Made by a program: the position numbers and the translations under genes. Shown here piece by piece: positions 4,062 to 31,976 of a stretch of 32,000 nucleotides of DNA. How positions within the stretch are numbered: the stretch's first letter is position 1; the number at the start of each line of letters is the position of its first letter. Under the pieces are notes generated by a model that was not told where the DNA came from, did not search any database, and saw nothing but the letters and a program-made list of their open reading frames with translations. This DNA comes from Chlamydiota bacterium (GTDB taxonomy: Bacteria > Auribacterota > JACPWU01), in the NCBI GenBank assembly GCA_016196885.1, contig JACPWU010000022.1:8763-40762 (forward strand). The letters are read 5' to 3'.

Positions 4062-4124
4062 AGTCCATAGTCCATGGTCCATAGTCGACAGTCCACAGTT
4101 TTAATGGACCATGGACTATGGACT
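4062..4124. repeat. Heptamer array H1 forming a perfect 21-bp hairpin
   Basis: AGTCCAT AGTCCAT GGTCCAT AGTCGAC AGTCCAC (4062-4096), then ATGGACC ATGGACT ATGGACT (4104-4124), which is the exact reverse complement of 4062-4082. The der stop codon (4116-4118) lies inside the right arm. Confidence 0.9.
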
Positions 4125-5438
4125 GCTTCTTTTTCGCTTCCCGCTTTGATAAACAAATTTAATAGGCGATCCCTCAAACCCAAAAAGCTTTCTAAATTCA
4201 CGCTCCAAAAAGAACCGATAGGACTCCTTCACGAAACTGGCTTGATTCACATGAATATGAAACTCCGGAGGATGACTTGCCGCCTGCAAAATTCGATCAA
4301 ATCGAGGCATGTGCCCTTCTTCACTGGGCGGCTGGCGAATGGCGAGAAAATTTTCTAGAAATGTTTCCAATTCCTCATCTGAAATTTTCCTCCTTCCACT
4401 TTCATCCACTTGAACAATCTTTTCAATTAGATTGTCTATCTGAAAACCTGTGAGGGCGGAGCAAAAAAGAATGGGATAAATATCTAAAAATTTCCATCTC
4501 TCTCGTAAAGCCTTCGTGTATTCACTTTTTTGAACCTTCTTCACCAAATCCCATTTATTGAGAACCAAAACACAGGCCTTATAACGTTTTCGAATCTCAT
4601 TCAAGATGCGAATGTCTTGAGCCGTCACGCCCTCAGCCCCATCGGTCATCAACACAGTTAAATCTGCCCTTCGAATGCTCTTCAGGGAACGCATCACGCT
4701 AAAAGTTTCGGGCCCCATTTTGACTTGATTTCTTCGCCTCATTCCTGCGGTATCCACAAAAGTGAAAAGATGATTCTTAATTTTAATAGAAACATCAATG
4801 GAATCGCGGGTTGTACCGGGAACGGAATCTACAATCAAGCGCTGCTTTCCTAAAAGGAAATTGATCAGCGTGGATTTTCCCACGTTGGGTTTCCCGACCA
4901 CCGCTACTTTAAGAGAAGATATTTCCTCTTCTTCAATTTTTCCCAAATGTTTTGTCACTTCATCTAGAAGTTCGGCAATGCCGACCCCATGGATGGAAGA
5001 AATCATAAATACAGATTTAAAACCAAAGCTATAAAATTCTTGTGTGTTTTCTTCCATATTAGGATGATCGACTTTGTTCACCACGAGAATCATTTTCTTC
5101 CCAGAACGGCGAATCCAAGCTGCAACCTCATCATCCAAGGGCGTCACTCCATTCTTTGCATCCACAATCAAAAGAACAAGAGCCGCCTCTTCCAAAGCCA
5201 TTTTGACCTGCTCGTGCACTTGACGGTGAATAGAATCCTTCTGACTCTCATCCACTCCTCCCGTGTCTACCAGGCGAAGAGAAATTCCATTCCAGGTGAG
5301 ACGAGCCTCCACGCGATCCCGCGTAATCCCAGGCTCCTCATGAACAATGGAAATACGCCGACCGATCAGACGATTAAAAAGAGTGGATTTTCCAACATTG
5401 GGACGGCCGATGATGGCAACGATGTTTTTCGAGTTCAC
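4116..5438 (-). CDS. der: Ribosome-biogenesis GTPase Der (EngA)
   Basis: Two tandem GTPase domains with P-loops GRPNVGKSTLFNRL and GKPNVGKSTLINFL, plus a KH-like C-terminus. GTG start overlaps the pgsA stop (GTGA). Confidence 0.95.
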   Translation of the reverse strand: MNSKNIVAIIGRPNVGKSTLFNRLIGRRISIVHEEPGITRDRVEARLTWNGISLRLVDTGGVDESQKDSIHRQVHEQVKMALEEAALVLLIVDAKNGVTPLDDEVAAWIRRSGKKMILVVNKVDHPNMEENTQEFYSFGFKSVFMISSIHGVGIAELLDEVTKHLGKIEEEEISSLKVAVVGKPNVGKSTLINFLLGKQRLIVDSVPGTTRDSIDVSIKIKNHLFTFVDTAGMRRRNQVKMGPETFSVMRSLKSIRRADLTVLMTDGAEGVTAQDIRILNEIRKRYKACVLVLNKWDLVKKVQKSEYTKALRERWKFLDIYPILFCSALTGFQIDNLIEKIVQVDESGRRKISDEELETFLENFLAIRQPPSEEGHMPRFDRILQAASHPPEFHIHVNQASFVKESYRFFLEREFRKLFGFEGSPIKFVYQSGKRKRSSP

Positions 5439-6037: not shown

Positions 6038-6115
6038 CGTCACAGTGATACCCCGTAACCCCTCCATCTCCCCTTAAATTAAGGGGAGAGCAAAACCCCT
6101 CTCATAGTGAGAGCT

Positions 6116-6137
6116 CCCCTCTTATTTCTAAGAGGGG
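6116..6137 (-). terminator. Hairpin downstream of gltX (no U-tract)
   Basis: CCCCTCTTA TTTC TAAGAGGGG, 9-bp stem, about 25 nt after the gltX stop. A second palindrome CTCCCCTTAAATTAAGGGGAG sits at 6068-6088. Neither is followed by a T-run, so terminator function is uncertain. Confidence 0.3.
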
Positions 6138-6162
6138 TTGGGGGAGTTATTAAATTTTTTAT

Positions 6163-7455: not shown

Positions 7456-7564
7456 AAGGTATTGATGATAAAGGAAGTGAGGAAATTTTGCACATGGAAA
7501 AAAATAATCGCAGGTCATTGATCTTGAAAAGGGTGCGGCGTTCAGTCGTCTTCAATTTAATGTC

Positions 7565-7599: not shown

Positions 7600-7743
7600 A
7601 TGAAACAAGAGCTCAAAACCATACGTCTGACCCGACAGGAAGAAAAGGAAATGAACCATTTCCTAAAGGTTCACCCTTATATTCGTAACTTTTCTACTTT
7701 GGTACGCGCGTCTGTTTGGGAATTTTTTAAAAAACATGAATAA
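7600..7743 (+). CDS. Small ribbon-helix-helix (CopG/Arc-like) protein, 47 aa
   Basis: Below the ORF-track size cutoff. MKQELKTIRLTRQEEKEMNHFLKVHPYIRNFSTLVRASVWEFFKKHE fits a beta-strand (TIRLT) plus two helices. It is the first gene of a toxin-antitoxin-like cassette. Confidence 0.5.
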   Translation: MKQELKTIRLTRQEEKEMNHFLKVHPYIRNFSTLVRASVWEFFKKHE

Positions 7744-8001
7744 AAAAAAAAAAAAAATGAAAAGCCTTCCTTTCTATGGGAATATGATTTAACCCATGGA
7801 GAAATCGTGGAGATCCTGAGAGGCCCCCAAAAGAACCGTCTCTGGCTTGTGGGAAAAATCATTGAACATGGGAAATGGGGCGAGGTATGGTCTTACTTAA
7901 CCCTTGAACAAATCGCTTACGATTTTCCCTTGCTACGACTCCCTTCGAAAATAAAAGAACACTGGCGTTATGCACTGGAACGATGGGGGGCCCGTCCATG
8001 A
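7736..8001 (+). CDS. Small protein upstream of the AbiEii-like gene; its N-terminal part is out of frame across the A16 tract
   Basis: Frame 1 is open from 7744 (KKKKNEKPSFLWEYDLTHGEIVEILRGPQKNRLWLVGKIIEHGKWGEVW...ERWGARP) but has no start before GTG 7807. ATG 7736 joins this frame only if the A-run is 17 or 14 nt. The FLWEYDL...IIEHG...W pattern resembles small proteins I recall preceding AbiEii-type genes. Confidence 0.45.
7742..7757 (+). repeat. A16 homopolymer tract
   Basis: Sixteen consecutive A counted directly. It starts in the TAA stop of the RHH ORF and ends in an ATG. Confidence 0.95.
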
Positions 8002-8651
8002 ATGTTTTAACAGAGTTACAACAAAAGGCTCTTAGGGCTTTTTTCTCCGTTCCAGAACTGAAAAGGCATTTCTATCTGACAGGGGGAACCGCCCTTTCAG
8101 GATTTTATCTAATGCACCGATTCTCAGATGATCTGGACCTTTTTACACACTCGATTGAGATTGACGACATTGAAAGAATTGCAATAGATGCATGGAAAAA
8201 CTTTGGACTACATCCGGTGAAAGAAAGGGGCTCTCCTACTTATAGACGCTTTCTCCTGAACGATGGTTTACAAGTAGATCTGGTCAAAGATATTGATTTT
8301 AGAGTGGGAACCCCGCAACTGCATCAATCCTTTATGGTGGACAATCCCAAAAATATTGCAGTGAACAAAGTCACCGCGATTTACGGACGCTTTGAGCCCA
8401 AAGACTATGTTGGTCTGTATTTTTTAAAGGCTTATCTCTCATACAATATTTTGGAACTTCTCAAATTGGGCATGCAAAAAGATGGAGGACTTGAACCTTT
8501 TCACTGGGCAAGAATTATTAAAGATGTAGAAAACATCACCGTGCTTCCACGCATGTTGAAACCTTTGGAATTGACAGAGCTGAAAAAATTCTTCATGAAC
8601 TTTAGAGAAGAAATTATAGACAGCCTTAAACCCAAGAATTCAACATCCTAG
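7998..8651 (+). CDS. AbiEii/AbiGii-family nucleotidyltransferase (type IV toxin-like)
   Basis: N-terminal signature HFYLTGGTALSGFYLMHRFSDDLDLF (GGTAL...R.S.D.D). ATGA start/stop overlap with the upstream ORF at 7998-8001. Confidence 0.8.
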   Translation: MNVLTELQQKALRAFFSVPELKRHFYLTGGTALSGFYLMHRFSDDLDLFTHSIEIDDIERIAIDAWKNFGLHPVKERGSPTYRRFLLNDGLQVDLVKDIDFRVGTPQLHQSFMVDNPKNIAVNKVTAIYGRFEPKDYVGLYFLKAYLSYNILELLKLGMQKDGGLEPFHWARIIKDVENITVLPRMLKPLELTELKKFFMNFREEIIDSLKPKNSTS

Positions 8652-8760: not shown

Positions 8761-9951
8761 TCAAAGATTAAAAATCCTTTTTAAACCCTCTTGCCAAGGA
8801 AGACAATGCACCTGTGCAATTTTTTGAGGCGTTGGATCCAAAGAAAGCCAATAGGCCTTCGCTTCCTTAAATGCCTCAACTTGTCGAGCGAATTTTTTCA
8901 CCCTGTGCTCATCCACCGTCTCACTCGATTTAATCTCAACTAAAATTTCCTCATTGGGTCTTGAAAGAATGAGATCCACTTCAACATCTCGCGTCCTAAA
9001 ATACGAAAGTCGAAAGTCTTTCATCAAGAGATCATTCAAACGAAAAATCTCCAAAATAACCCAATGCTCAAAAGCCTCTCCATAGGCTGAAGTTCTGGGA
9101 CTCAGAGGTACGTCCAGAACACCTGCCAGGACACGTTTCACACCCACGTCAAAAAAATAAAATTTAGGATGTGTCCGTTGGGCCTTTCGAACAGAACGGC
9201 TGTATCCAGACAAGAAAAATCCCAAGTGCGTATCTTCAAGAATCTGAAAATAAGATTGAAGAGTCTTGTGATCTGTTCCCACATCACGGGCAATCGCACT
9301 ATAATTCAACGGAGCCCCATTGCTCTGGGCAGCTACCTCCAAAAAGGAACGGAAGGGAGTCAGCCGTCTCACCAACTGCTCAAGTTGGATTTCTTCTTTC
9401 AGATAAGTCAGCGCGTAGGATCTTAGAAACAATGATTTGTCCTGAGAATTCTCGATCTCACTCAATTTCGGAAGCGTCCCCCAATGAAGAGCTTGGCTCA
9501 AGTCAAAACGCTTTCCCAATTCAAAAGAGCCCAGGGGATGGAGCGCATAGACAAAGGCACGACCCGCGAGCAAATTGGCTGCACCTCTCTTTAATTTCCT
9601 AGCGCTAGAACCCGTCAGAATAAACTTAAGATGAAGAGACTCTATGAGATGATGAACCACATCCAAAAGCCTGGGAACTTTTTGTACCTCATCAATAAAA
9701 ACCCACTCAAGCTCCTTCTTCTCTAAATGTTCTAACACCATCGCCTTAAGCCTCCCAGGGTGCCGAACATACAAATCCTCTACCTCTGGCAAGAGCAAGT
9801 CCAAGACCAAAATCTTCGACAGATCAACATCTTTCAAGAACTGATCTTTAACAAAGGTCGATTTCCCCGTCCCCCTAGCCCCAAAGAGGAAAAAACTCCC
9901 AGAGCGTGTTGGATTGATCAATCTTGGTATCATACTCCCAAATTGTGACAT
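8761..9951 (-). CDS. AAA+ ATPase with DUF4143-type C-terminal domain (COG1373-like)
   Basis: Walker A GARGTGKST, Walker B VFIDEVQ, C-terminal EVDLILSRPNEEILVEIKSS (D..E.K nuclease-like motif). Confidence 0.8.
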   Translation of the reverse strand: MSQFGSMIPRLINPTRSGSFFLFGARGTGKSTFVKDQFLKDVDLSKILVLDLLLPEVEDLYVRHPGRLKAMVLEHLEKKELEWVFIDEVQKVPRLLDVVHHLIESLHLKFILTGSSARKLKRGAANLLAGRAFVYALHPLGSFELGKRFDLSQALHWGTLPKLSEIENSQDKSLFLRSYALTYLKEEIQLEQLVRRLTPFRSFLEVAAQSNGAPLNYSAIARDVGTDHKTLQSYFQILEDTHLGFFLSGYSRSVRKAQRTHPKFYFFDVGVKRVLAGVLDVPLSPRTSAYGEAFEHWVILEIFRLNDLLMKDFRLSYFRTRDVEVDLILSRPNEEILVEIKSSETVDEHRVKKFARQVEAFKEAKAYWLSLDPTPQKIAQVHCLPWQEGLKRIFNL

Positions 9952-10091
9952 CTTTAGGGAGTATAGTCAATATTTTTGCTCCATCCTAAAAAACGCAAAC
10001 TTCTCGGGTCAGGTCTTGTAATCGCACATAAGCCATTTACGATTTATATTTACAACTACCTCCATTGAAATGAATTATAGAATATTTTACT

Positions 10092-10119
10092 CACGACTCA
10101 CCCCTCACGACGCACGACT
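10092..10119. repeat. Heptamer array H6
   Basis: CACGACT CACCCCT CACGACG CACGACT. On the sense strand it reads TAG TCGTGCG TCGTGAG GGGTGAG TCGTGAG TAA, starting at the oxidoreductase stop codon. Confidence 0.8.
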
Positions 10120-13100
10120 ATTTTCCACTGTTGATTTTGACACCCTCTATGGAAGCAGAAGAAGGTGTCAATCTCTTTGAATGGGGAGATGAAGTCCCCA
10201 AAAGCTCACTCACTTTGAGTTTGGCCTCATCCATTTTGGGATAGCGCACTTGGCGATAGCCTCGGACCTCTTCAGGGGTTTGAAGGGCCTGAACATAGAG
10301 ACGATAGGAGGCTTCTTCCTGAAAATCAAAATTGTCTACCAAGTCAGAATACCATTGTCGAAAATCTTTTTCTGCCTTGTGCCATTGGGGAAGGATCTTT
10401 CTCAAAAATTTCAAATGTTTCATAATATTGAGCTGCCAATTCTGGGTCACAATGTCAAATTCGATATTCCAGGGGCCTATTTTAAATTGTGGCCGATTGA
10501 TGTGGCGATAAATCAACCGATCTCCTGCATGATGGATGTTGTAGCGTTCCTCATCCCTCCTCTTCTTTTCCACACTCGTCAGTAAATGGGCCACATAAAC
10601 TTCGTCCTTGATTAACATCACCTTGGCCAAATTAAAAAGCGCTGCCTTTGTGGCTTGGTATTGCAGTTCCAACCGGTCTTTGTGATAGACAGAAAGAACT
10701 TTTTCTACATAATTTTTCGCATAAGCTACGTTTTCATATTGAATGAGATCGTAAACACGAAGGGCAAAATGACGCAAGGTCTCATCGTCTAAAACCAATT
10801 GTGTCAAGGCTCCCTGAACGATCTCCCGATAAACCTTGGAGCGGTAACTTCCCTGCCAACCCCGACCTAGAATTTTTTCTTTCTCTTCAAAAAGAGCTTG
10901 AAAACCTTTGGGCTGATTTTGCTTCTCAAAAAATTCTCTCGAAAGAACCATGCGCCGACCTACATTAAAAGCCAAAATATTTCTCTTCAAATCGCTGTGA
11001 ATGGTATCTTGAATCGCCCCCAAAATACTTTCCAGACTCAAAGGGAGTAACCCCTTTTGAAAGGCCGCACCCAGCATCACCAAATTGACGTAGAGCTTAG
11101 ATCCCAAGTATTTTTCTGAAACGTCCGAGAAATCAAAACCGTCATAATAATCCTTGCGCGTGTATTTCTTCAGCAACCCTTCTAATTCGTCAAGTGAAAA
11201 ATGGTCCAGGCCCATGAGACTTCGAATGGTGGGCGTTTTGTATAAATTAACAAAGGCCACGGTCCGGTCCGGACTTCCCATGCGTAAATGCATTCGAGAA
11301 TCCAAGGCCCGAACGGCCTCCAAGGCGTCTAATCCCCAGAGCAAATCGGCCTTTCCATTGGGAATCACTTGAGAAACAGGCAAAGGTCCCTTGAGAAAAC
11401 TGATTTCGGAATAGACCCCTCCGTTGCGAATCGCTAAACCCTTCTTGTCGCAGAAAAGGACGTGATAACCTTCCTTCATCCCGGCATGAACCAAGATAGA
11501 AGTGAGAACCCCAATTCCCATTCCTCCCACGCCCGCAACATAAGTGTGCCACTGGTCCTTGATTTTCCAATAGACGGGTGAAGAAAAATGATCCAGATCC
11601 AATTTTTTCAAACGATCTTCCGGTTTCCCCGATCGCTTCACAATCACCTTTTCAAAAGAGGGGCAGACCTTGACCTTGGTGCAAGCGGTATCTGCCACAC
11701 AAGTGGAAAGATCCGTCACAATTTTGGGACCGTAATCCGTCTCCTCCACCGTGAGTCCGGGACATCCTGTAGATTTCGTACACTCCAAACAATATTCGCA
11801 AACTTGAGGTGTGATATTGACAAATTCTTCCCTAGGCAAATACCCCTTCTCCCGAATGGTCCGACCCTTCTCTCGACGAACCCGGCGGTGATAGGTAATA
11901 CCGCATTCTTTATCCGCAATTAGAACCTTGACACCGTCCTGTAAAATGGTCTCTTCCAAAATGTCCCGATACTGCGTCCGATAAGCCGGATTAACCCGCA
12001 TCACTGGAATGGTGCCATCATGCGTCATCCCCTTCAAAACATGCTCGATGTCCTGGGCAAAGGTAGGACGGCCTAAAATATCGGTATCAGACTCAGGCGT
12101 GGGCTGATGACCCGTCATGGCCGTGGTTTTATTATCCAAAATAATGTAGGTGATATCTTGATGATTCTTGACCGAATCAGAAATGGCCGCCATACCGCTG
12201 TGAAAAAAGGTGGAGTCTCCCATGAACACCACTTGCTTATTCACAATAAAAGGATCAATGCCTGCCCCTGTTCCCCCGCCCAGACCCATGCCAGAATAAT
12301 TGTGCATCAATTCTTGATTGGGCTCGAACATCAACATGGTATAACAGCCGGTATCCCCATGAAAAAGCAAGTCCACGGGATTTGTTTCATGACGAGCTTT
12401 CATGTATTTGGGATCCCGAAAATCTTTCTTAATTTCGATCAGCACACTAGAAGAATCGCGGTGGGGACATCCCGGACAAAAAGTCGGCGTGCGAAGAGGT
12501 ATTTCAGCAGAAAAATTTCCTACCGCTTCAATCAAGGCCAATTCACTTTTGATCCTTGCCTTATTCATTCCCTCAACAGGAAATCGCAAAAAGAGCGGGC
12601 CCAAATGTTCTATCAAAATAGAGGGATTGAGCCCACGTGTGGCTGGAATGCCAGAAAGTCCTTCCGGAAAAGATTTTCCCCAGATTTTCGGTGAAATCCA
12701 ATTGGAATGCCTTTGAGAAGCATCCTTCAAAAGAGAAGTGATTTGCTCTTCAATAAATCCTCTCTTCTCTTCAATCACAATAATGTTTTTCACCTGATTG
12801 GCAAAATCCAAAACCAATTCTGGATCCAGAGGATACGTAATCCCTAATTTTAAAATGGGAAAATGCGCCTGAAGCCCCATTTCCAAAAGCGCATGTTCCA
12901 AATAGCTGTACGCGAGACCCGAACTGACGAATCCAAAATCGCTCAGGCCTTGAGCAGGATAATGAATGACATTCACCCTTTTTTCGCGACATAAACGATG
13001 AAGCTCTCTAAAGCGCCCCTCTAAATCTTCTTCTCGACGTGCAGTTCGGGGCGGCAAAAGAACCGTATCGGCCACCGGAATTTTTCGCGTGTCTAATTCC

Positions 13101-13708: not shown

Positions 13709-13784
13709 TTTTTACTCGTCGTTAGCCCGCATTTCATCTGAAAATAGTCTTTAGTTATTCTTATACAATAAGTTATGATGACTT

Positions 13785-13829
13785 GTAGTCGCCCGATTCA
13801 TCGGGCAGCCCCATAAATGGGGCGACTAC
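13785..13829. repeat. REP-like compound palindrome copy B
   Basis: GTAGTCGCCCGATTCATCGGGCAGCCCCATAAATGGGGCGACTAC, the exact reverse complement of core A. It sits inside a larger segment bounded by imperfect inverted repeats CCCGCATTTCATC (13727-13739) and GATGAGAAATGCGG (13918-13931). Confidence 0.85.
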
Positions 13830-13933
13830 AAGGGTGATTTTCATCCCCCTTTGTGACTGAAAGGATCCCCGATAAAAACACTCGGGGATGACAAGCTGTA
13901 GGCATTTTGAGCTCGTGATGAGAAATGCGGTTT

Positions 13934-13961
13934 AGTCGCTCGTCATTCGTATTTCGTACAG
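13934..13961. repeat. Heptamer array H5
   Basis: AGTCGCT CGTCATT CGTATTT CGTACAG, about 40 nt downstream of the nadK stop. Confidence 0.7.
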
Positions 13962-14937: not shown

Positions 14938-15420
14938 ATGGACCCCATTTTAGAAATTTTAGAGAAAGACGCTCGGCTCAAGCCAGAAGAAATCGCCAAA
15001 ATGGTCAAAAGAAATGTAGTCGAGATTAAAAAACTCATCCAAAAATATGAGAAGGAACGGGTGATTTTACGCTACAAAACCGTTCTGAATAAAGAGCTTT
15101 TAAGAAATTCCAGCGAGGTGAGGGCCTTGATCGAAGTCAAGGTCACCCCCCAAAGAGACGTTGGCTTTGATGCCATTGCCACGCGTATTTATCAATTTCC
15201 GGAGGTGAGAAGCTGCTACCTCATGTCCGGCGGCTACGATCTTCTCGTCACAGTCGAAGGGAAAGACCTTCAATCGGTAGCCTCCTTTGTTTCTGAAAAA
15301 TTGTCCACCCTGGAGAATGTGCATGGAACGGTCACCCATTTTCTCTTAAAAAAATACAAAGAGGACGGAGACATTCTGCGCTCACGGGAAGAAGATAAAC
15401 GGATTGCCATTTCATTTTAG
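14938..15420 (+). CDS. Lrp/AsnC-family transcriptional regulator
   Basis: N-terminal wHTH (ILEKDARLKPEEIAKMV) followed by a RAM-like domain (ALIEVKV...YDLLVTVEG). Confidence 0.8.
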   Translation: MDPILEILEKDARLKPEEIAKMVKRNVVEIKKLIQKYEKERVILRYKTVLNKELLRNSSEVRALIEVKVTPQRDVGFDAIATRIYQFPEVRSCYLMSGGYDLLVTVEGKDLQSVASFVSEKLSTLENVHGTVTHFLLKKYKEDGDILRSREEDKRIAISF

Positions 15421-15497
15421 CGTACAGCGTACAGCGTATAGCGTTTAGCGTACAGGAAAAACAAAACTTCTTTTTGCTGTACGCTATCTGCTAAACG
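15414..15497. repeat. Heptamer array H2 with partial inverted arm
   Basis: ATTTTAG CGTACAG CGTACAG CGTATAG CGTTTAG CGTACAG (15414-15455), a 21-nt A/T-rich loop, then CTGTACG CTATCTG CTAAACG (15477-15497). The regulator stop TAG (15418-15420) is in phase with the array. Confidence 0.85.
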
Positions 15498-15511
15498 CCA
15501 AAAAGAACGAT

Positions 15512-17341: not shown

Positions 17342-17350
17342 CTTTAAAAC

Positions 17351-17424
17351 CGTCGTTCGTTGTCTGTCGTTCGTCATCCGTCAGTCGTTTCAACGAAATA
17401 CGAGTAACGAACGACGGACGACGG
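17351..17424. repeat. Heptamer array H3 forming a long imperfect hairpin
   Basis: CGTCGTT CGTTGTC TGTCGTT CGTCATC CGTCAGT CGTTTCA, then ACGAAAT ACGAGTA ACGAACG ACGGACG ACGG. CGT-phased units switch to ACG-phased units at the apex (17389-17392). The array fills the receptor-stop to tonB-start gap. Confidence 0.85.
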
Positions 17425-17427
17425 CAT

Positions 17428-19287: not shown

Positions 19288-19302
19288 ATCCCCTCCTCGT
19301 TC

Positions 19303-19923
19303 TTATAAGATTTTCAAAACCAAACGAAACACCATCACACTCACCATCACACTCACTTCCATCGTCTCTTCAAAAAGGAAAAAATATTTCTTGAAGAATC
19401 GTAAACCCATGGCCAAAAGAGCGACCGCCACCCCAAACACAAAAATCCCCAGGGGGCCACAGGCCAAGGCCAAAGAAAGGCAAATAAAGGAAGCCCATAA
19501 CACATCTTCCCATTCCCACCCTTTTGGCTTCGCATCCCTTATCTTCCAAGCCCAGGCCCCACTGGAAAAAGTTGTCATAAAAATCAAGCTCATCCATCTC
19601 AAGGGAAAAGGGACGAGACACAAAATCACCCCTTTCAAAAGCGTCCAGAAAAGCGTTTCAAAAAAATGAGACGAGAAACTCAATAAGTTTTCTAGGCCGC
19701 GAGAATACTTAAGCCCCATCCAGCCAAAGAGCAAAATTCCATTCGCCAAGAAAAGTGGAACACAGCCCCTCAGCATCTGGTCCAGATACACCAACACCAC
19801 ACCCGCAAAAATCCCAATCACAGGAAAATAGGCGAGGGCCCGCGACTTCACCTCTTCAGAAGGCTCCGTCTTTCCCAAATGGACACAGGTCAAAAATTGA
19901 AGTGCTTGCCTAAATGAATTCAT
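19303..19923 (-). CDS. CobS-like polytopic membrane protein (divergent; catalytic motif not seen)
   Basis: N-terminus FRQALQFLTCVHLG...ALAYFPVIGIFAG resembles adenosylcobinamide-GDP ribazoletransferase. I find no H.DGLAD..DG motif, and at 206 aa it is shorter than typical CobS. Confidence 0.4.
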   Translation of the reverse strand: MNSFRQALQFLTCVHLGKTEPSEEVKSRALAYFPVIGIFAGVVLVYLDQMLRGCVPLFLANGILLFGWMGLKYSRGLENLLSFSSHFFETLFWTLLKGVILCLVPFPLRWMSLIFMTTFSSGAWAWKIRDAKPKGWEWEDVLWASFICLSLALACGPLGIFVFGVAVALLAMGLRFFKKYFFLFEETMEVSVMVSVMVFRLVLKIL

Positions 19924-19972
19924 TTTTTCGTCGTTCGTTGTTCGTCGTTGGTCGTTCGTATTTCGTAGATAC
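19924..19972. repeat. Heptamer array H4 abutting a start codon
   Basis: TTTTTCG TCGTTCG TTGTTCG TCGTTGG TCGTTCG TATTTCG TAGATAC, immediately 5' of the cobS-like ATG (19923-19921). No SD. Confidence 0.85.
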
Positions 19973-20159: not shown

Positions 20160-20350
20160 TTTTTTTATTCACCCAGGTCTTCTGGCTCCCCAGCCCTTTT
20201 GACTGCCTTCCCAATCCAACCCAATGTCAGACCAGTGGCTCCTTCTTCGTCAAAAGGTTCCTTTCTCTTTCGAGAAAGGACTAGGTTACAGCGGCGGGGC
20301 CGCTCCGGATTCTAACCGGATTCCCTTAGAGTAAACGCGACCAGTAAACT
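20160..20350 (-). promoter_or_regulatory. Cobalamin (B12) riboswitch aptamer
   Basis: Minus strand contains CTAAGGGAATCCGGTTAGAATCCGGAGCGGCCCCGCCGCTGTAACC, then GAGCCACTGG...TTGGGAAGGC, then the B12-box-like GAGCCAGAAGACCTGGG. Order and sequence parallel the E. coli btuB leader elements. Confidence 0.85.
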
Positions 20351-23036: not shown

Positions 23037-23068
23037 TAATGCTTGTCAAACATAATGCTTGACAAACA
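23037..23068. promoter_or_regulatory. Tandem 16-bp repeat with internal palindrome, overlapping a TTGACA box
   Basis: TAATGCTTGTCAAACA TAATGCTTGACAAACA. Each unit contains TGNTTGNCAANCA. It lies in the divergent region between the permease and an ATPase gene. Confidence 0.5.
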
Positions 23069-23094
23069 TCATGTTTATGAAGCATTATATTTGC

Positions 23095-24405
23095 ATGTAC
23101 AGCTTCTGGGATAGAGAACGGGAATTCTTAAAGGCAAAACGTTTCATTCACAAGACAGGATTTGGCTACGTCACGGGACGCCGCCGCATTGGGAAAAGCG
23201 CCTTTCTAACCAAACTCTGCCGAGAGGAAGGAGGCCTCTACCATCAAGCGGTTGAGGGAGAACCCCAACAACAATTGCTGCATTTGGCAGAAGAATGGAA
23301 AGAATCCCTCCCCCTCTTTCGAGAAATAAAACCAAAGACATGGAGTGAATTTTTCGCCCTTCTCTCAAAAGAAAACCTTCCCAAAATATTGATCTTTGAT
23401 GAATTTCCCTATTGGGTCGAGAGTGACCCAACCCTCCCCAGCTTTCTGCAAAAATGGATTGACCATGAACTCCCAAAAAAGAAAACCTTTATCTGGATGT
23501 CCGGATCTTCTCAATCCATGCTGCACTCTCAATTCTTAAACCAGGGATCTCCTTTGTACGGTCGCGCCACAGCACATATTCATTTAGAGCCCATGCCTTT
23601 TCACTGGTTTTGTAAGGCACTCGACTACCCGCTTCACGACCCTGTGTCCTTCGAGAGATATTGTTTAGTAGGCGGCGTTCCATACTATTGGAAGCTCATG
23701 CCATCAGGATCCGTCATTGATCAGGCTCACACGCTTTACTTTGAGCCTACAGCCATTCTCTCAGAAGAGCCTAAACACTTGATTCAGGATGAAGGCATCA
23801 CGGGAACCATTCCGAAAGCTATTCTAGATTTGATCGGACGAGGTGTCTCCAAACCCAGCGAACTGGGAGCTCGAATTGGAACGGCTCAAGGAAACCTGTC
23901 CAGACCTCTGGCCCTTCTTCTGGATGTTAACCTCATTTCAAAAGAGCTCCCCTTCGGTGAATCTTCCAGAACAACCAAAAGGGTTCTTTACACCCTTCAA
24001 GATCCTGCTCTGTCTTTTTACTATGGGACTTACCTTCCCTTCAGAGAACGCTGGAACAAGATTACACCTCCAGAAAAAAAGAATCTTCTTCATCTTCATG
24101 CATCAAAGCAATGGGAAATTTTTTGCCGTCAAGCCTACGGAGGATCCCGTTATTGGGAAGAAGACGTTGAAATAGATCTGATTTCACTTCAGAAGGATGG
24201 GCATAAAACATTGGTTGCAGAGTGCAAATGGAGTGATCTTTCAAAAAAGGAAGAAAAGAACTTACTTGAAGACCTTCAATATCGCTTCGCCAAAACAAAA
24301 ATTGCAGAAAAATTGGCCCCTATAGATTTTAAAATCTTTTCAAAAAAAGACCTGCAAGAAATCGCAAAAACAGAAGCTTCAGAAAAAGCAGTGAATGGCA
24401 CCTAG
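23095..24405 (+). CDS. AAA+ ATPase (archaeal-ATPase type) with DUF234-like C-terminus
   Basis: FWDREREFL, Walker A GRRRIGKSAF, Walker B LIFDEF, C-terminal EIDLISLQKDGHKTLVAECKW. The ORF opens at TTG 23059; ATG options are 23071, 23077 and 23095. Confidence 0.75.
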   Translation: MYSFWDREREFLKAKRFIHKTGFGYVTGRRRIGKSAFLTKLCREEGGLYHQAVEGEPQQQLLHLAEEWKESLPLFREIKPKTWSEFFALLSKENLPKILIFDEFPYWVESDPTLPSFLQKWIDHELPKKKTFIWMSGSSQSMLHSQFLNQGSPLYGRATAHIHLEPMPFHWFCKALDYPLHDPVSFERYCLVGGVPYYWKLMPSGSVIDQAHTLYFEPTAILSEEPKHLIQDEGITGTIPKAILDLIGRGVSKPSELGARIGTAQGNLSRPLALLLDVNLISKELPFGESSRTTKRVLYTLQDPALSFYYGTYLPFRERWNKITPPEKKNLLHLHASKQWEIFCRQAYGGSRYWEEDVEIDLISLQKDGHKTLVAECKWSDLSKKEEKNLLEDLQYRFAKTKIAEKLAPIDFKIFSKKDLQEIAKTEASEKAVNGT

Positions 24406-24423
24406 TGTTTAGTGTATAGTGTG
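24403..24423. repeat. Heptamer array H7
   Basis: TAGTGTT TAGTGTA TAGTGTG. The first TAG is the ATPase stop codon. Confidence 0.75.
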
Positions 24424-24595: not shown

Positions 24596-25792
24596 TTAGA
24601 CATGTCTCCAGGAAATAATCCTATGATTCTTATATTGAAAAGATTCATCACCCGCATAGAATACACCGCAATTTCTTAAGCGAATATCCTGAGAAATAGA
24701 TCTAAATTTATCAACTTGTTCAACATAACGGCCGTCAAATGTTTCTGAAGCCTTGATTTCATAGGCGTCTATGTTTAAGCCGTCTTCAATGAGAATATCA
24801 ATCTCAAGCTTATTGGACTCTCGCCAGTAATAGAGTTTAGAAGATAACTGATGATGGTTAATGGTTTTAAATAAGTCTGCAACAATGAAATTTTCAAATA
24901 GGGCTCCCTTGAGTGGATGCGTAACAATCTCCTCGGGTGAGCGTATCCCTAAGAGGTAGCAAAGTAACCCCGTATCCGTGAAATAGAGTTTGGGTCTCTT
25001 GATAATCCGTTTATTAAAATTTTTAAAGTAGGGCCTGAGTGTAATGATTTGAAACGAAGCCTCCAAAATTGAAAGCCAACGCCCCACGGTTGTATGAGAG
25101 ACAGCGCCATCATTGGCTAGAGATGCCTGGTCTAAGATTTGTCCACAGCGTCCCGCACAAAGAGAAAAGAAGCGTCGATAACTTTCCAAATCTCCAATGT
25201 TAATAACGGATCTTACATCCCTTTCCAAATAGGTTTGAATATAATTTCCAATCCATTCCCTGGGTTCCAAATGTTGATCATGGATTCGAGGGTAAAGTCC
25301 TGAAAAAAGGATCTCATAAAGGTCGTCCTTTTTAGATGACTCGAGCAGCTTTAAATCATTCCTGTTGAAAAAATGATGTTCAGGGTCGTCTTGTAACTCA
25401 CTCAGTGTGAAAGGCATTAAATGGTGGATACTCACCCTTCCTGCGAGCGATTGTCCGATCGCTTCCAACAACAAGAAATTTTGTGATCCCGTCAAAATAA
25501 ACTGACCGGGTTTTTGCCTTTGATCCACAATTCCTTGAATATAGGAAAAAAGATCGGGAACCCTTTGAGCTTCATCAATGATGACGCCCTTTGAATATCT
25601 ATTCAAAAAACCTTTAGGATCGCTTAAGGCAAACTCTCGATCTACTGGATTTTCCAACAAGACATATTCATGGTTTGGAAATAGGGATTTTACCAGGGTT
25701 GTTTTTCCAGATTGTCTGGGGCCTGTTAGGCTAATCACAGGATAATGTCGACTTGACTCTATAAGGGCTTTACTGATGCTACGTAGTTTCAT
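24596..25792 (-). CDS. AAA+ ATPase with DUF4143-type C-terminal domain (COG1373-like)
   Basis: Walker A GPRQSGKTT, Walker B VIIDEAQ, C-terminal EIDILIEDGLNIDAYEIKAS. Confidence 0.8.
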   Translation of the reverse strand: MKLRSISKALIESSRHYPVISLTGPRQSGKTTLVKSLFPNHEYVLLENPVDREFALSDPKGFLNRYSKGVIIDEAQRVPDLFSYIQGIVDQRQKPGQFILTGSQNFLLLEAIGQSLAGRVSIHHLMPFTLSELQDDPEHHFFNRNDLKLLESSKKDDLYEILFSGLYPRIHDQHLEPREWIGNYIQTYLERDVRSVINIGDLESYRRFFSLCAGRCGQILDQASLANDGAVSHTTVGRWLSILEASFQIITLRPYFKNFNKRIIKRPKLYFTDTGLLCYLLGIRSPEEIVTHPLKGALFENFIVADLFKTINHHQLSSKLYYWRESNKLEIDILIEDGLNIDAYEIKASETFDGRYVEQVDKFRSISQDIRLRNCGVFYAGDESFQYKNHRIISWRHV

Positions 25793-26776: not shown

Positions 26777-26990
26777 ATCATACCTCTTTACGAAACAATC
26801 CCCTGAGCCACAGGAACTGCCGTAGCCGCAAGAACCCCATAGCCTTCCAAGACATGGATCAAAGGAAGCGCTGCCTCAGGGATTTGGAAACCAACTCATT
26901 ATATAAGACATCCTGACCTAAACCCAGCAATTTCAATTGAATTTATAAGAGGGTCATAGGATAATCTTCTCATTATGAAAATATCAATTT

Positions 26991-27115
26991 CAATGATCTT
27001 TCGAGATCATCGTGTGCGATGAAAGTTCTCCCCATCATGCTTTTTTTGTAGTCGCCCGATTCATCGGGCAATCCATGCAAGGGGCACACGGCAGCCCCAT
27101 AAATGGGGCGACTAC
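26991..27115. repeat. REP-like element copy C: conserved flank (26991-27047) plus flipped core with a 23-nt insertion (27048-27115)
   Basis: Same flank orientation as copy A, but the core reads GTAGTCGCC CGATTCATCGGGCA [ATCCATGCAAGGGGCACACGGCA] GCCCCATAAATGG GGCGACTAC. It ends 3 nt before the ATG at 27119. Confidence 0.85.
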
Positions 27116-27118
27116 ATA

Positions 27119-27919
27119 ATGAACCTCACTTTCATAGCAAAAATTATTTATATTTTTTTAATTGTCTCATCTCTATCCATTCAAGGATGCGGAAAGAAAG
27201 AAAATGAAAATTCTTCTTCACAAACTCCCACATCCCAAAATAACAAGCCTACTCTTTCCATAGATCCCCAAAAAACGGGAACGATTTCAGGAAAAGTTTT
27301 ATTCAAGGGACAAGCCCTCCAGCCTAAAGAACTTCCCATGGGCGGCAATCCCGAATGCAGCACTTTTCATCAAGGGAAGGCCTATAGCGAAGAGCTTTTG
27401 GTCAAAGACGGCGCCCTGCAAAATGTGTTTATTTACATTAAAGAAGGTCTTGAACAATATTCCTTCACGCCCCCTCAGGAACCTGTAAAATTAAATCAAG
27501 CGAAATGCCTCTATTCACCGCACGTGGTTGGAGTTCAGGTCAACCAACCTTTTATCTTGGTGAACAGCGATCCTACCCTTCACAATGTTCACTCCTATTC
27601 TCAAGCGAATGAAACCTGGAATGTAGGCATGCCCTTTGAGGGGATGGAAGTGACAAAAACCTTTTCAAAATCTGAAATCATGATTACCTTAAAATGTGAC
27701 CTACACCCCTGGATGATAGGCTACGTGGTAGTTCTCAACCATCCTTATTTTGCAGTCACGGATGCCCAAGGACATTTTGAAATTAAAAATCTACCTCCTG
27801 GAAAATACGTGATAGAAGCCTGGCATGAAAAGCTGGGAACTCAAGATCAAACCATTGAAATCAATGCCCAAGAAACAAAAGAACTCGAATTTTCATTCGA
27901 GTTCTCGTCTAAAAAATAA
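27119..27919 (+). CDS. Secreted/lipoprotein-like cupredoxin-type protein with C-terminal carboxypeptidase-regulatory-like beta-sandwich
   Basis: Signal peptide ending LSIQGC. Type-1 copper-like ligand pattern HNVH ... CDLHPWM (compare amicyanin C-x-x-H-x-x-M). GHFEIKNLPPGKYVIEAWHEKLG is typical of CarbopepD_reg-like domains. Confidence 0.55.
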   Translation: MNLTFIAKIIYIFLIVSSLSIQGCGKKENENSSSQTPTSQNNKPTLSIDPQKTGTISGKVLFKGQALQPKELPMGGNPECSTFHQGKAYSEELLVKDGALQNVFIYIKEGLEQYSFTPPQEPVKLNQAKCLYSPHVVGVQVNQPFILVNSDPTLHNVHSYSQANETWNVGMPFEGMEVTKTFSKSEIMITLKCDLHPWMIGYVVVLNHPYFAVTDAQGHFEIKNLPPGKYVIEAWHEKLGTQDQTIEINAQETKELEFSFEFSSKK

Positions 27920-28726: not shown

Positions 28727-29026
28727 TTAATCATAGGCGTTTTCCACCGAACGACAGAAACTCACCAACCTTCTCTGAAGGGCATTGTATTGTGAGTATG
28801 CATCTGACGTCGTCTTTTCCAAAAGCTTGTAAAGTTCGTGATGGGGAGGACTGGATTCTCTGTCTATCAAAGCATTTGGAATATCTATTCCCAAAAAACG
28901 CAATCGGGGAGCAGCCATGAATACCAATAAGGCATGAGTCGTATGGGGGTGCCCTTGTGAAATGTCTTCTAGCCCCCGATTGACCAATTCCCAACCCGGA
29001 ACATTTTCAAAATCATGGTTTCTCAT
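28727..29026 (-). CDS. Small hypothetical protein, partner of the upstream nucleotidyltransferase
   Basis: Likely start MRNHDFENVPGW (29026), overlapping the upstream gene end by 14 nt. Predicted helical. Contains RESSPPH (an R-x5-H spacing). Confidence 0.45.
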   Translation of the reverse strand: MRNHDFENVPGWELVNRGLEDISQGHPHTTHALLVFMAAPRLRFLGIDIPNALIDRESSPPHHELYKLLEKTTSDAYSQYNALQRRLVSFCRSVENAYD

Positions 29027-29546: not shown

Positions 29547-29654
29547 ACAGGGTCCTATGGGCTTATTGAAAATAATTGTACCATGTTCGCACTGTTATTG
29601 AATTCAAATTCCAAGCGTGCTATTCTTCTCGAATGATTGAGGAGAATTTTATTT

Positions 29655-31937
29655 ATGGAAAATGCCTTCGCCCCTGAAAATTTTTACAAAAATTTTGTTT
29701 CAAAAGTGGATGTTGCAAGAAAAAAATTTAAACGGCCTTTGACCTTGGCCGAAAAAATCTTGGCCGCTCATGCAACGGATTTGAATCATCAGGAATTTAA
29801 ACGTGGGGAAAGCTATCTTGTTCTCGCCCCTGATCGTGTGGCCATGCAGGATGCCACGGCCCAAATGGCCATTTTGCAATTCATGTTGGCAGGTCGAAAA
29901 ACAGTGGCCTCTCCCACCACCGTTCATTGCGATCATCTGATTCAAGCCCGAATAGGGGCTGCTCAAGATATGCAGCAAGCACTCAAAGTCAATGAAGAGG
30001 TTTATGATTTTTTGAGAAGCGCCTCTCAAAAATATGGCATCGGTTTTTGGAATCCGGGCGCGGGGATCATTCATCAAGTGATTTTTGAAAATTATGCCAT
30101 GCCCGGGCTCCTTATGATCGGGACAGACTCTCACACCCCCAATGGCGGTGGAGTGGCCATGCTTGCAATTGGGGTGGGAGGTTCAGACGCAGCAGATGTC
30201 ATGTCAGGTCTTCCTTGGGAAGTGAAATGCCCCAAACTCATCGGCGTTCATTTAAAAGGAACTCTCAATGGCTGGACTGCCTCTAAAGATGTGATTCTAA
30301 AACTTTGCGGGATTCTGACCACCAGCGGCGGAACAGACAAAATCATTGAATATTTTGGACCTGGGACGCGCTCTATCAGCGCCACAGGTAAAGGGACCAT
30401 CACCAATATGGGAGCTGAACTCGGAGCCACCACTTCCATTTTCCCTTACGATGAAAGAATCGAGACTTACTTAAAGGCAACACGCCGCGGAGAAATTGTC
30501 ACAGCACTAGAACCTTTTCAAAAAGAGCTTCAGGCCGATCCCGAAATCGAAAAAAATCCCAAAGATTTTTTTGATGAAATTGTCGAAATTGATTTATCTA
30601 CTTTAGAACCTTATGTGGTCGGCCCTCATTCCCCTGACGTAGCAAGACCCATTTCACAAATGGCCAAAGAGGTGGAGGAGAAGAAATATCCAAGCCATCT
30701 CTCAGCCGCTCTGATCGGGAGCTGCACCAATTCTTCTTATGAAGACATTGGACGCGCCGCCGCCGTTGCAGCCGAAGCCAAATCTCTCGGACTCAAGGCA
30801 AAATCTTATTTTCTCATCACGCCCGGCTCATACCAAATTCACAACACCATTCAAAGAGATGGACAGTTGAAAACGCTCACAGAAATGGGCGGAACTGTTT
30901 TGGCAAATGCCTGCGGCCCTTGCATTGGACAATGGAAACGTGATGACATTAAACCGGGCACAGCCAATTCTATTATTACCTCCTTCAATCGAAATTTTCC
31001 AAAGCGCAATGATGGTAACGCAGAGACACTGGCCTTTATTGGGAGCCCAGAGCTTGTGACTGCCATGGCACTGGCCGGCGATTTACGCTTCAATCCTCTC
31101 AAGGATACTTTAACAGCGCCTAATGGGCAAAAAGTGAAACTGACGCCCCCGTCGGCCCCTGAACTTCCTTCAAAAGGATTTGTCGAGGGAGAACAGGGAT
31201 TTATTGCTCCCATTCCAGAATCAGAAAGAGCAAAAATTGAGATTGAAGTTGCTCCCCAAAGTGAGCGCCTGGAACTTTTGAAACCTTTTGAAAAATGGGA
31301 CGGCCGAGATTTTGAAAAACTTGTCATTCTCATCAAAGCCAAAGGACAATGCACCACAGACCATATTTCTCCCGCAGGTCCCTGGCTCAAATACCGAGGG
31401 CACTTGGACAAAATTAGCGACAACATGTTTTCGGGGGCCATTAATTCTTTCAATGGAGAAACGGGCATTGGGAAAGACATTTTAGATGGGCAAATCAAGA
31501 ATTTTTCTGCCATCGCTCGGCATTATCAAGCCAATCACTTAGGCTGGGTGGCTATCGGCGACCAAAATTATGGAGAGGGCTCAAGTCGTGAGCATGCAGC
31601 CATGTCTCCCCGACTTCTCGGCTGCAAAGCCGTCATCGCCAAAAGCTTTGCCCGTCTGCATGAGACCAATCTTAAAAAGCAAGGGATTCTCCCTTTTAAA
31701 TTTTCTAGCTTAACAGACTATGATCGAATCAAAGAAGATGATAGGATCAGTTTGAAAGATTTAGCAAAATTGACTCCAGGAAAATTTGTGACAGCAACCC
31801 TCCATCGTGCAGACGGAAAAACCGAAACGCTTGAACTCCAGCATTCATTGACTCCAGACCAAATTGAATGGTTTAAAGCGGGCTCGGCACTAAACTTGAT
31901 TCGTTCAAAAGAAAAAGAAATTAAAAGTGAAAAGTGA
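29655..31937 (+). CDS. Aconitate hydratase, ~760-aa mitochondrial-like type
   Basis: DRVAMQDATAQMA, GTDSHTPNGGG, Fe-S ligands IGSCTNSS and NACGPCIGQW, swivel domain GDQNYGEGSSREHAA. Start at MENAFAP (29655) after GAGGAG. Confidence 0.9.
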   Translation: MENAFAPENFYKNFVSKVDVARKKFKRPLTLAEKILAAHATDLNHQEFKRGESYLVLAPDRVAMQDATAQMAILQFMLAGRKTVASPTTVHCDHLIQARIGAAQDMQQALKVNEEVYDFLRSASQKYGIGFWNPGAGIIHQVIFENYAMPGLLMIGTDSHTPNGGGVAMLAIGVGGSDAADVMSGLPWEVKCPKLIGVHLKGTLNGWTASKDVILKLCGILTTSGGTDKIIEYFGPGTRSISATGKGTITNMGAELGATTSIFPYDERIETYLKATRRGEIVTALEPFQKELQADPEIEKNPKDFFDEIVEIDLSTLEPYVVGPHSPDVARPISQMAKEVEEKKYPSHLSAALIGSCTNSSYEDIGRAAAVAAEAKSLGLKAKSYFLITPGSYQIHNTIQRDGQLKTLTEMGGTVLANACGPCIGQWKRDDIKPGTANSIITSFNRNFPKRNDGNAETLAFIGSPELVTAMALAGDLRFNPLKDTLTAPNGQKVKLTPPSAPELPSKGFVEGEQGFIAPIPESERAKIEIEVAPQSERLELLKPFEKWDGRDFEKLVILIKAKGQCTTDHISPAGPWLKYRGHLDKISDNMFSGAINSFNGETGIGKDILDGQIKNFSAIARHYQANHLGWVAIGDQNYGEGSSREHAAMSPRLLGCKAVIAKSFARLHETNLKKQGILPFKFSSLTDYDRIKEDDRISLKDLAKLTPGKFVTATLHRADGKTETLELQHSLTPDQIEWFKAGSALNLIRSKEKEIKSEK

Positions 31938-31976
31938 AAAATTAAAAGTTACAATCGAGCATCGAGAATCAACATA
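31921..31976. repeat. Heptamer array H8
   Basis: TTAAAAG TGAAAAG TGAAAAA TTAAAAG TTACAAT CGAGCAT CGAGAAT CAACATA. The aconitase TGA stop (31935-31937) begins the third unit. Confidence 0.7.

Follow-up and report, generated by a model that had tools for sequence, protein, structure and literature searches.

What are the short tandem arrays of seven-nucleotide units that stand at gene boundaries in contig JACPWU010000022.1, which belongs to a metagenome-assembled genome (MAG) annotated as 'Chlamydiae bacterium'? We analyzed a stretch of 32,000 nucleotides of this contig, here called the window, in which an earlier note made from the sequence alone had described period-7 arrays at eight boundaries, each with a unit of its own. 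Cyanobacterial heptamer repeats were already known in 1990, and in 2007 heptamers were recognized as the commonest long simple repeats of many bacteria, but such repeats still have neither an established function nor an established reason for the 7-base step. The arrays in the window are very probably heptanucleotide simple-sequence arrays that resemble the short tandemly repeated repetitive (STRR) sequences of cyanobacteria. They are a new example of this known, unexplained class of bacterial repeats and not a new kind of system, and they add a new deep-branching, uncultured lineage to the array-rich genomes. Taken as a whole, the explanation that we prefer, at a probability of roughly 0.65, is that these STRR-like arrays would arise by slippage and block copying, be filtered by selection, and affect RNA in the manner of REP elements.

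Period-7 arrays at the gene boundaries of the window

The window was searched for tandem repeats with Tandem Repeats Finder (TRF) and with a lag-p self-match scan against shuffled sequence, at periods from 4 to 15. Six period-7 segments reached a lag score of at least 10, compared with 0.05 in the shuffles, and 10 segments reached a score of at least 8, compared with 0.75. No comparable enrichment was seen in the lag-p scan of the window at any other period in this range. The arrays are non-random and specific to period 7. Intergenic sequence made up 8.7% of the window, and 7 of the 9 array loci were at least 48% intergenic. The arrays have the properties of heptanucleotide long simple sequence repeats (LSSRs), which are defined as head-to-tail runs of units of 5 to 11 nt that are longer than expected by chance, and, as is typical where the unit length is not a multiple of 3, they are concentrated outside coding sequence. 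TRF and the lag enrichment supported the arrays at the eight boundaries (Table 1), except that loci 13934 (3 units) and 17351 were too degenerate for detection by TRF; these were counted as arrays because they are 70% to 87% identical to the array at locus 19927. CRISPR, which had already been set aside, was rejected on the same grounds, namely that the units are contiguous and lack spacers. The only Rfam matches in the window were a tRNA-Val and a cobalamin riboswitch, with no known RNA family at the arrays.

Five stop codons, those of der, the IOR-like oxidoreductase gene, the Lrp/AsnC gene, the DUF234 ATPase gene, and a 766-aa open reading frame (ORF), were located inside arrays, and one more was located 1 to 3 nt away. 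The 10089 array, which reads UAG UCGUGCG UCGUGAG GGGUGAG UCGUGAG in the RNA sense, starts with the stop codon that closes the reading frame of the 1196-aa IOR-like oxidoreductase. The first TAG of the 24403 array serves as stop codon for the DUF234 ATPase, with the tRNA-Val 50 nt downstream. Some 50 nt short of the contig end, the 31923 array covers the final codons of the 766-aa ORF together with its TGA stop (31935-31937). The arrays are mostly intergenic, as had been claimed, but the rule that all of them lie between a stop codon and the next start, or directly after a terminal gene, did not hold: the arrays at 31923 and 4104 overlap last codons, and the 19927 array lies in a riboswitch leader.

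The 19927 array (RNA sense ACGAAAU ACGAACG ACCAACG ACGAACA ACGAACG ACGAAAAAAUG) ends 3 nt 5' of the start codon of the first gene of an operon controlled by the cobalamin riboswitch. Given the positions of the riboswitch and its terminator, the array is part of a regulated 5' leader and not of a stop-to-start spacer. It was also noted that the operon encodes a 206-aa membrane protein, a TonB-dependent receptor, and TonB. It is probably a vitamin B12 uptake system, which would be unusual for a source labelled as Chlamydiae.

Table 1. Heptamer arrays and associated features, with coordinates in the window unless otherwise stated
Locus	Feature	Position	Strand	Evidence or details
4062	AGTCCAT array, 5.4 copies	4062-4099		TRF
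4062	ATGGACT array, 3 copies, reverse complement of AGTCCAT	4104-4124		TRF
4062	Inverted pair of heptamer arrays	4062..4124	-	RNA sense (AGUCCAU)3, loop, (AUGGACY)3-5
10089	Single array, ACTCACG, 4.4 copies, 75% matches	10089-10119	-	TRF; lag score 8, marginal alone
13934	Degenerate member of the CGT/ACGA family	13932..13960	-	RNA sense ACGAAAU ACGAAUG ACGAGCG; missed by TRF
15421	AGCGTAC array (CGTACAG-type), 5.3 copies	15419-15455	+	TRF
15421	Array with inverted arm (CTGTACG CTATCTG CTAAACG)	15419..15502	+	Inverted repeat of 31 nt, 81% complementary
17351	Inverted pair of the CGT/ACGA family	17344..17427	-	Sequence, inverted-repeat and family comparison
19927	Single ACGA-family array, TTCGTCG, 4.7 copies by TRF (19927-19959)	19927..19967	-	Lag score 16
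	Cobalamin riboswitch aptamer	20175..20326	-	Rfam RF00174, 65.9 bits vs gathering score 31.5
	Riboswitch intrinsic terminator	20048-20027	-	Terminator-like site search
24403	Three-unit array TAGTGTT TAGTGTA TAGTGTG	24403..24422	+	TRF unit TAGTGTA, 2.9 copies, 92% matches; lag score 10
31923	A-rich array AAAAGTG AAAAGTG AAAAATT AAAAGTT	31923..31951	+	TRF, 3.9 copies (31923-31949); lag score 13
	Palindromic element of relative L084, 3 copies	838-961, 11323-11446, 19266-19389 (L084)		Each copy at a gene 3' end

Inverted array pairs and predicted hairpins

Three of the loci (4062, 15421, and 17351) are inverted array pairs, an architecture that is absent from the earlier note, and are predicted to form very stable intercistronic hairpins with stems of 20 to 30 bp. 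The segment 4062-4124 folded at -39.3 kcal/mol (z -7.8) with a perfect 21-bp stem, in which a variant unit is mirrored in both arms, whereas the segments 15434-15498 and 17344-17427 folded at -33.2 kcal/mol (z -4.0) and -37.1 kcal/mol (z -4.2), respectively. All three spacers join co-directional genes. The first pair occupies the entire 55-nt spacer between der and the gene for an HD phosphohydrolase, with the der stop codon (4118-4116) inside the 5' arm and the HD start 2 nt past the 3' arm. The second element begins in the stop codon of the Lrp/AsnC gene and takes up nearly all of the 91-nt spacer, and the start of the aminotransferase gene downstream is at 15512. The third pair constitutes the whole 84-nt spacer from the stop codon of the TonB-dependent receptor gene (17430-17428) to the likely TonB start (17343). 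At these loci, the upstream gene ends within or beside the 5' arm, and the downstream gene starts 2 to 10 nt past the 3' arm. The remaining arrays in the window were single and unstructured (fold z -0.9 to +2.5). These include the 10089 array, which has no inverted partner and no significant structure (z -0.9), the 24403 array (z -0.1), the 31923 array, for which no structure was found by RNA folding, and the 19927 array, which was unusually unstructured at z +2.5. Heptamer hairpins in relatives had fold z values of -4.1 to -6.1.

Intrinsic transcription terminators marking 3' ends might come to mind, since many arrays begin at stop codons and three form strong hairpins. However, none of the 47 terminator-like sites (a stem followed by a T run) overlapped an array in the window, five arrays lack any hairpin, and the window hairpins are followed by start codons instead of T runs. 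Moreover, with only 2 to 10 nt between hairpin and start there is no room for a promoter, and we consider this explanation hardly credible.

A stronger, although still doubtful, candidate is that the hairpins and leader arrays have been selected as cis-acting RNA punctuation that sets relative expression within operons by translational coupling, RNase III processing or mRNA stabilization, with the repeats being merely the mode in which such elements are built. The filling of whole co-directional spacers, with the stop at the 5' arm and the start just after the 3' arm, the perfection of the 4062 stem with its mirrored variant, and the return of hairpins at gene 3' ends in relatives all argue for it, as do the arrays that directly precede start codons (see below) and reporter data from Nostoc that suggest an effect of heptamers on expression. 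It is weakened by the existence of in-frame insertions inside an ORF and of single unstructured arrays after stop codons, and by stems that range from perfect to decayed, as would be given by birth and decay.

A practical point for annotation is that gene starts and stops adjoining heptamer arrays are unreliable. Three gene callers placed the start of the HD gene at three positions, within or past the 4062 array. The called TonB start (242 aa, inside the array) and the called start of the glmS-like gene in a relative, L085 (13689, upstream of a Met-Cys start), also look wrong because of the adjoining arrays.

Unit families and probable copying of whole blocks

Counts for the source genome cover 37.9 kb, which consist of the window and of sequence just outside it on the same contig (in L081 numbering). 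The claim that each locus has its own unit was not upheld, as one family, here called CGT/ACGA, is present at 5 to 6 sites in these 38 kb. Its members in the window are the arrays 19967-19927 and 13960-13932 and both arms of 17344-17427, and two further arrays are located upstream of glmS outside the window (L081 17310-17345 and 17531-17577). With identities of 70% to 87%, this bears out the relationship between positions 13948, 19957, and 17399 at which the earlier note had hinted. The 13934 array, about 40 nt 3' of the nadK stop codon, is 85% identical to 19941-19967 over 27 nt and has the same edge unit, ACGAAAT. The variant edge unit ACGA[A/G]AT starts four copies of the family, which favors the copying of whole blocks over independent local expansion. 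All other units in the window were seen once within the 38 kb, so that CGT/ACGA half-elements are the only recurring heptamer elements in the window, and the three window hairpins are built from unrelated units. The orientation of the ACGA family relative to transcription was consistent at 4 of 4 loci, which is not significant (p about 0.125). ACGA-type arrays in sense orientation directly precede three start codons, none with an obvious Shine-Dalgarno sequence.

Dispersed families were also identified in two relatives. L084 (61% Der identity) contained three copies of a palindromic element of about 125 nt, with (ATCAAAA)n arms and 86% identity (Table 1). Two of these copies supply, with AAAATGA, a C-terminal tail and the TGA stop of Der and LNT, and the tails are composed of Lys, Ser, Ile, Asn, and Gln. 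The ends of the element showed no clear target-site duplication, and the similarity continues for about 12 nt into the flanks. In L085 (59% Der identity), a second copy of the hairpin in the glmS leader lies at a distance of 6 kb, and three loci have TAGGTTG arrays. The comparisons show that there are several array families per genome, some of which are dispersed as whole blocks.

A GGGGATT-type array was observed both in L085 (13675-13697) and in a Peptococcaceae MAG (L070, 7574-7608), so that this unit recurs across phyla. It is the G-rich unit that has been studied as a quadruplex former in Nostoc.

The diversity of units bears on the proposal, made in the literature for the TAACTGA repeats of Beggiatoaceae, that such arrays are binding sites for a protein contacting about 7 nt per subunit, such as a cold-shock-domain, S1 or Sm-like protein. 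The strict 7-nt register and the single arrays adjoining starts in 5' leaders would fit such a protein. With at least 10 unrelated units in 38 kb, 84 in the metagenome set described below, and both orientations in use, the arrays are incompatible with one sequence-specific reader, and we regard protein binding as very improbable.

We noted that a REP-like or miniature inverted-repeat transposable element (MITE)-like intergenic element without heptameric structure is also dispersed in the source genome (window 2814-2927, 13783-13832, and 26986-27119; L081 17380-17500). Its core is a nested palindrome, GTAGTCGCC CGATTCATCGGGC AGCCCCATAAATGGGGCGACTAC, with a GTAG head, and the family is also written GTAGTCGCC...GGCGACTAC. 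The longer copies have an 84-nt flank (AATCTCAATGATCTTTCGAGATCATCGT...), the copies are 85% to 100% identical, and one of them is located inside the loop between two heptamer arms upstream of glmS. A link between the arrays and this element through a TAGTCG motif, and hence a RAYT-type mechanism, was considered and rejected, since 11 copies of the motif were observed compared with 14.9 expected, most of them within the REP-like element itself.

Arrays inside a coding sequence

The statement that no array lies in coding sequence did not survive inspection of the same contig just outside the window. A 1549-aa ORF about 4 to 6 kb to the left of the window contained six in-frame heptamer arrays (L081 19541-21323), with the units CATCCAA, AGTTCAA, TCCAACA, ACATCGT, ACATCGA, and CGAAGTA. 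The arrays are translated in all three frames into peptides such as SSNIQHPTSN and TSYIVHRTSN. The corresponding segments are insertions that are missing from the distant homologs P0122-P0125 and present in the sister protein P0121, which is 63% identical. All six units are free of stop codons in the three frames; an array that passes through every frame can persist within a gene only if this holds. The boundary arrays, on the other hand, mostly contain stop triplets, which there define the stop codon. This contrast is as predicted for a DNA-level process that is filtered by selection, and not for a dedicated boundary signal. Arrays are tolerated wherever the reading frame survives, that is, in spacers, at gene ends, in 5' leaders, and as in-frame insertions in a tolerant ORF. 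The locus thus offers compact examples of spacers that consist of one hairpin, of elements that provide the last codons and the stop, and of in-frame insertions translated in three frames.

It was also noted that the N-terminal part of the 1549-aa ORF holds an in-frame palindrome, CCCCTCTTA...TAAGAGGGG, which is also found at 6116-6137 in the window, and a segment (TTACCCCAGGGGGCTACTTCGTTGA) related to the 120-nt indel element described below.

Distribution among relatives, unrelated genomes, and metagenomes

The density of period-7 arrays was 0.34 per kb in the source, 0.23 per kb in L084 and L085, and zero in 21 kb of L001, the closest representative in GTDB (59% Der identity). This der-centred region of L001, for which gene order was not compared, manages without arrays, which is a further point against selected RNA punctuation. 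In 79 unrelated der loci (1.28 Mb) used as controls, the density was 0.023 per kb, and 63 of the 79 loci had no array. The control arrays clustered in a few loci from Terriglobia, Anaerolineae, Desulfobacteraceae, Peptococcaceae, Sphingomonadaceae, and Omnitrophota; 23 of 30 were located at gene boundaries and 12 of 30 had an inverted partner.

The sequence (AGTCCAT)3 was found in more than 120 metagenome contigs, compared with about 2 expected by chance according to our own estimate, which together with the dispersed families described above shows that the units are not locus-specific. We selected 80 of these contigs (L090-L169), chosen only for the presence of (AGTCCAT)3. Their GC contents ranged from 24% to 69%, and none of the 80 was related to the source. 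They contained 244 period-7 arrays, compared with 3 to 31 arrays for other periods. When only units with 3 or more mismatches to AGTCCAT were counted as unrelated, 83 arrays remained, corresponding to 0.177 per kb or about 8 times the control density. As many as 69% of the 244 arrays were outside ORFs, although ORFs account for 80% of the sequence, and 27% had an inverted partner. Since these contigs had been picked for (AGTCCAT)3, their unrelated units indicate that richness in arrays is a property of the genome, whatever the unit. That one heptamer unit predicts unrelated units on the same contig, across GC contents of 24% to 69%, is probably the most useful lead from this analysis. The co-occurrence points to a cause at the level of the genome, and a co-varying factor is worth seeking.

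Such a factor could be a dedicated, sporadically distributed enzyme that writes or copies DNA with a 7-nt period, for example a polymerase, primase, reverse transcriptase or HUH-type nuclease. The predictive power of a single unit, the dispersal of whole blocks, and the bimodal distribution, with no arrays in L001 and most controls and 0.2 to 0.5 per kb in a few lineages, would be explained by it. However, we saw no gene for such an enzyme in the window and found neither terminal inverted repeats nor target duplications nor a nick-site signature, and TAGTCG, the motif suspected of linking the arrays to the REP-like element, showed no enrichment. We therefore think this explanation unlikely. 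A combination, in which array-rich genomes possess an activity acting in 7-nt steps whose products have, in lineages like this one, been adopted as general intercistronic punctuation, seems to us equally improbable. If true, it would explain both the co-occurrence of unrelated units across phyla and their absence in close relatives, and the adopted arrays would be hairpins that couple or insulate neighboring cistrons and even supply their stop codons.

Period 8 also showed a smaller excess in the array-rich contigs, with 31 arrays compared with 3 to 13 for the periods other than 7. Some contigs of about 40% GC were extreme, such as L151, where 6 kb contained 12 unrelated heptamer arrays, and may be cyanobacterial.

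Turnover at orthologous junctions and identity between assemblies

Heptamer arrays were present at the junction between der and the HD gene in the source, L084 and L085, with the unrelated units AGTCCAT, AAATCAA, and GTAAGCN. The stop codons of the IOR, nadK, HD, and gltX genes and the glmS leader also had arrays in one or more relatives, including a CGTNAGA array at the L085 ortholog of the IOR-like stop. L085 had arrays at 8 of the 8 junctions compared and therefore provides no discriminating power, while the source and L084 agreed at 1 of about 5 informative junctions, and the units always differed. Conservation of position at orthologous junctions as a sign of selection was not supported, as the agreement was no better than the high density of arrays predicts, and this also counts against selected RNA punctuation. 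What the comparison of these junctions does show is a rapid turnover of array units. At the gltX-pgsA junction, L084 and L085 have heptamer arrays, whereas the source spacer (window 6068-6162) contains the GC-rich palindromes CTCCCCTTAAATTAAGGGGAG and CCCCTCTTATTTCTAAGAGGGG and no heptamers.

The disappearance of the arrays on re-assembly had been named beforehand as a sign of artefact. The arrays at 4062, 13934, 15421, and 17351 were 100% identical in six Logan contigs from three sequencing runs (SRR12113387, SRR12113416, and SRR12113417) and in the NCBI record JACOUD010000083.1 (GCA_016178005.1, 'MAG: Chlamydiae bacterium'), which rules out an assembly artefact or a collapse of the arrays. 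Depending on the array, up to four assemblies from these runs agreed base for base; identical copies were found for the 4062 array in three assemblies, for the array starting at 15419 in three Logan contigs, and for the pair starting at 17344 in two Logan contigs.

The same data bear on phase variation, in which the gain or loss of units would switch genes in the manner of contingency loci. A 7-nt indel would shift the frame where arrays overlap coding ends, and one of the arrays inside the ORF, ACATCGT, lies close to the point at which the sister ortholog P0121 appears to be truncated. Phase-variable loci are recognized by unit-number polymorphism, of which there was none at the four loci in the NCBI assembly and the six Logan contigs, a sampling limited to three runs. 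The arrays are also short and imperfect, and their neighbors are housekeeping genes (der, nadK, and glmS) and not surface antigens, making phase variation scarcely plausible.

The window differed from JACOUD010000083.1 in three respects, none of them within an array. At 13862/13863 the window lacks 120 nt that are bounded by a duplicated TTTCAGTCACAAAGGGGGATGAA in the record, at 7742-7757 it has A16 where the record has ATCGTTTAAACAAAAA, and there is one single-nucleotide polymorphism at 8413. These differences could represent population variants or another version of the assembly.

Relationship to known repeat systems

Heptameric STRR sequences were described in heterocystous cyanobacteria (Mazel et al. 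1990, as cited in PMC4692102), and heptanucleotides were reported to be the most abundant type of long simple repeat in most genomes analyzed (Mrazek, Guo & Shah 2007, as cited in PMC4679880 and PMC4692102). The heptamers TTTTGAA, GACYAAT, and GGGGAYT of Nostoc are located near promoters and start codons and have modest effects in reporters. The arrays studied here share with STRR sequences the tandem 7-nt units, the several families per genome, of which CGT/ACGA has dispersed copies within the 38 kb, and the mostly intergenic location, often adjoining start codons. They differ in being shorter (3 to 6 units), in having a larger share of inverted pairs, and in their host, which, as had been surmised from the gene content, is not a cyanobacterium but the MAG annotated as 'Chlamydiae bacterium'. 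The STRR consensus units CCCCAGT, TTGGTCA, and CAACAGT were not found in the window, although L085 has its GGGGATT array, and the window units (AGTCCAT, CGTACAG, ACGAACG, TCGTGAG, TAGTGTT, and AAAAGTG) match neither the sequences nor the taxon that define STRR sequences.

STRR sequences had been put forward as the only analogue. The analogy is close, but there are others in Xanthomonas, Geobacter metallireducens, and Beggiatoaceae and among the heptanucleotide LSSRs. About 185 GGGAATC arrays are found in Xanthomonas, with 70 to 75 convergent inverted pairs, and their type is conserved across species while their length is variable (PMC4692102). The dominance of heptamers, the sporadic phylogenetic distribution, the intergenic bias, and the inverted pairs capable of forming stem-loops are features that the LSSRs and the Xanthomonas arrays have in common with those of the source. 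Xanthomonas has essentially one G-rich unit with quadruplex potential, whereas the source has many units that are not G-rich, so that a quadruplex explanation is inapplicable. The elements of four or five heptamers in Geobacter metallireducens are located between and within genes (PMC2700814) and resemble our dispersed blocks in both respects; however, each family there has one consensus and 16 to 49 copies, the regulatory role is only predicted, and hairpin pairing is minor. TAACTGA direct repeats are located just 5' of start codons in Beggiatoaceae, where a translational role has been proposed (PMC4679880). Their arrangement, with 2 to 6 copies a few nucleotides 5' of starts, recalls the 19927 and glmS-leader arrays, but a single unit is used genome-wide, with almost no inverted copies.

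A different group of small dispersed palindromes, the REP/BIME, Correia, ERIC, and Rickettsia palindromic elements, is located at gene 3' ends and in operons and forms stable stem-loops in mRNA. Those of Rickettsia also occur as in-frame insertions within protein-coding genes. All of these types are conserved in sequence and lack an internal period of 7 nt; REPs are associated with a RAYT transposase, and defined terminal repeats and a TA target characterize the Correia elements. By analogy, the arrays of the source would resemble these palindromic elements in their probable action, without having a conserved sequence. The hairpin units in the window are unrelated to each other, so that no palindrome is common to all copies, and no RAYT (IS200/IS605-like) transposase is encoded in the window, nor were terminal repeats or a TA target of the Correia kind seen.

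Origin and possible roles of the arrays

Polymerase slippage has been proposed for heptanucleotide repeats, as discussed in PMC4679880 and PMC4692102. In the explanation that we prefer, slipped-strand mispairing of the DNA in steps of 7 nt would create and reshape the arrays, which would then be copied as blocks or inverted by template switching and filtered by purifying selection. Inverted pairs that are transcribed may act like intercistronic stem-loops of the REP/BIME or Correia type, with possible roles as barriers to 3'-5' exonucleases or as substrates for RNase III. They could also occlude the downstream initiation region until the ribosome on the upstream gene melts the stem, resulting in translational coupling. 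Single AC-rich arrays may serve as unstructured leaders in the absence of a Shine-Dalgarno sequence. This account of the origin and the RNA roles, which we infer largely from sequence comparison, has about an even chance of being correct, while the assignment of the arrays to the STRR-like class stands much more firmly.

Several points weigh against the preferred explanation. No copy-number polymorphism was seen in the three sequencing runs, so that active slippage was not observed. The absence of length variation counts for less, however, since the three runs probably drew on a single population and the arrays are both short and imperfect. Slippage alone accounts neither for the preference for 7 nt nor for the dispersal of entire blocks. 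The perfect stem of 21 bp at 4062, and the stop and start codons that flank the stems, could reflect direct selection for a function of the RNA, every role at the RNA level is deduced from modelled structures, and the source genome is represented by 38 kb only.

Other repeats and neighboring genes

Two tandem repeats with other periods were observed in the window. A 16-nt unit, TAATGCTTGACAAACA, is repeated 2.3 times at 23037-23073, across the start of the DUF234 ATPase ORF, and contains TTGACA. A 12-nt unit, CACCATCACACT, is repeated 2.2 times at 19330-19356, at the 3' end of the gene for the 206-aa protein. We also noted an AbiEii-type toxin gene with a small upstream ORF and two paralogous genes for AAA_14/DUF4143 ATPases (window 7600-8651, 8761-9933, and 24596-25792). 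These genes look like accessory or defence-type cargo within a block of housekeeping genes that is contiguous in L085.

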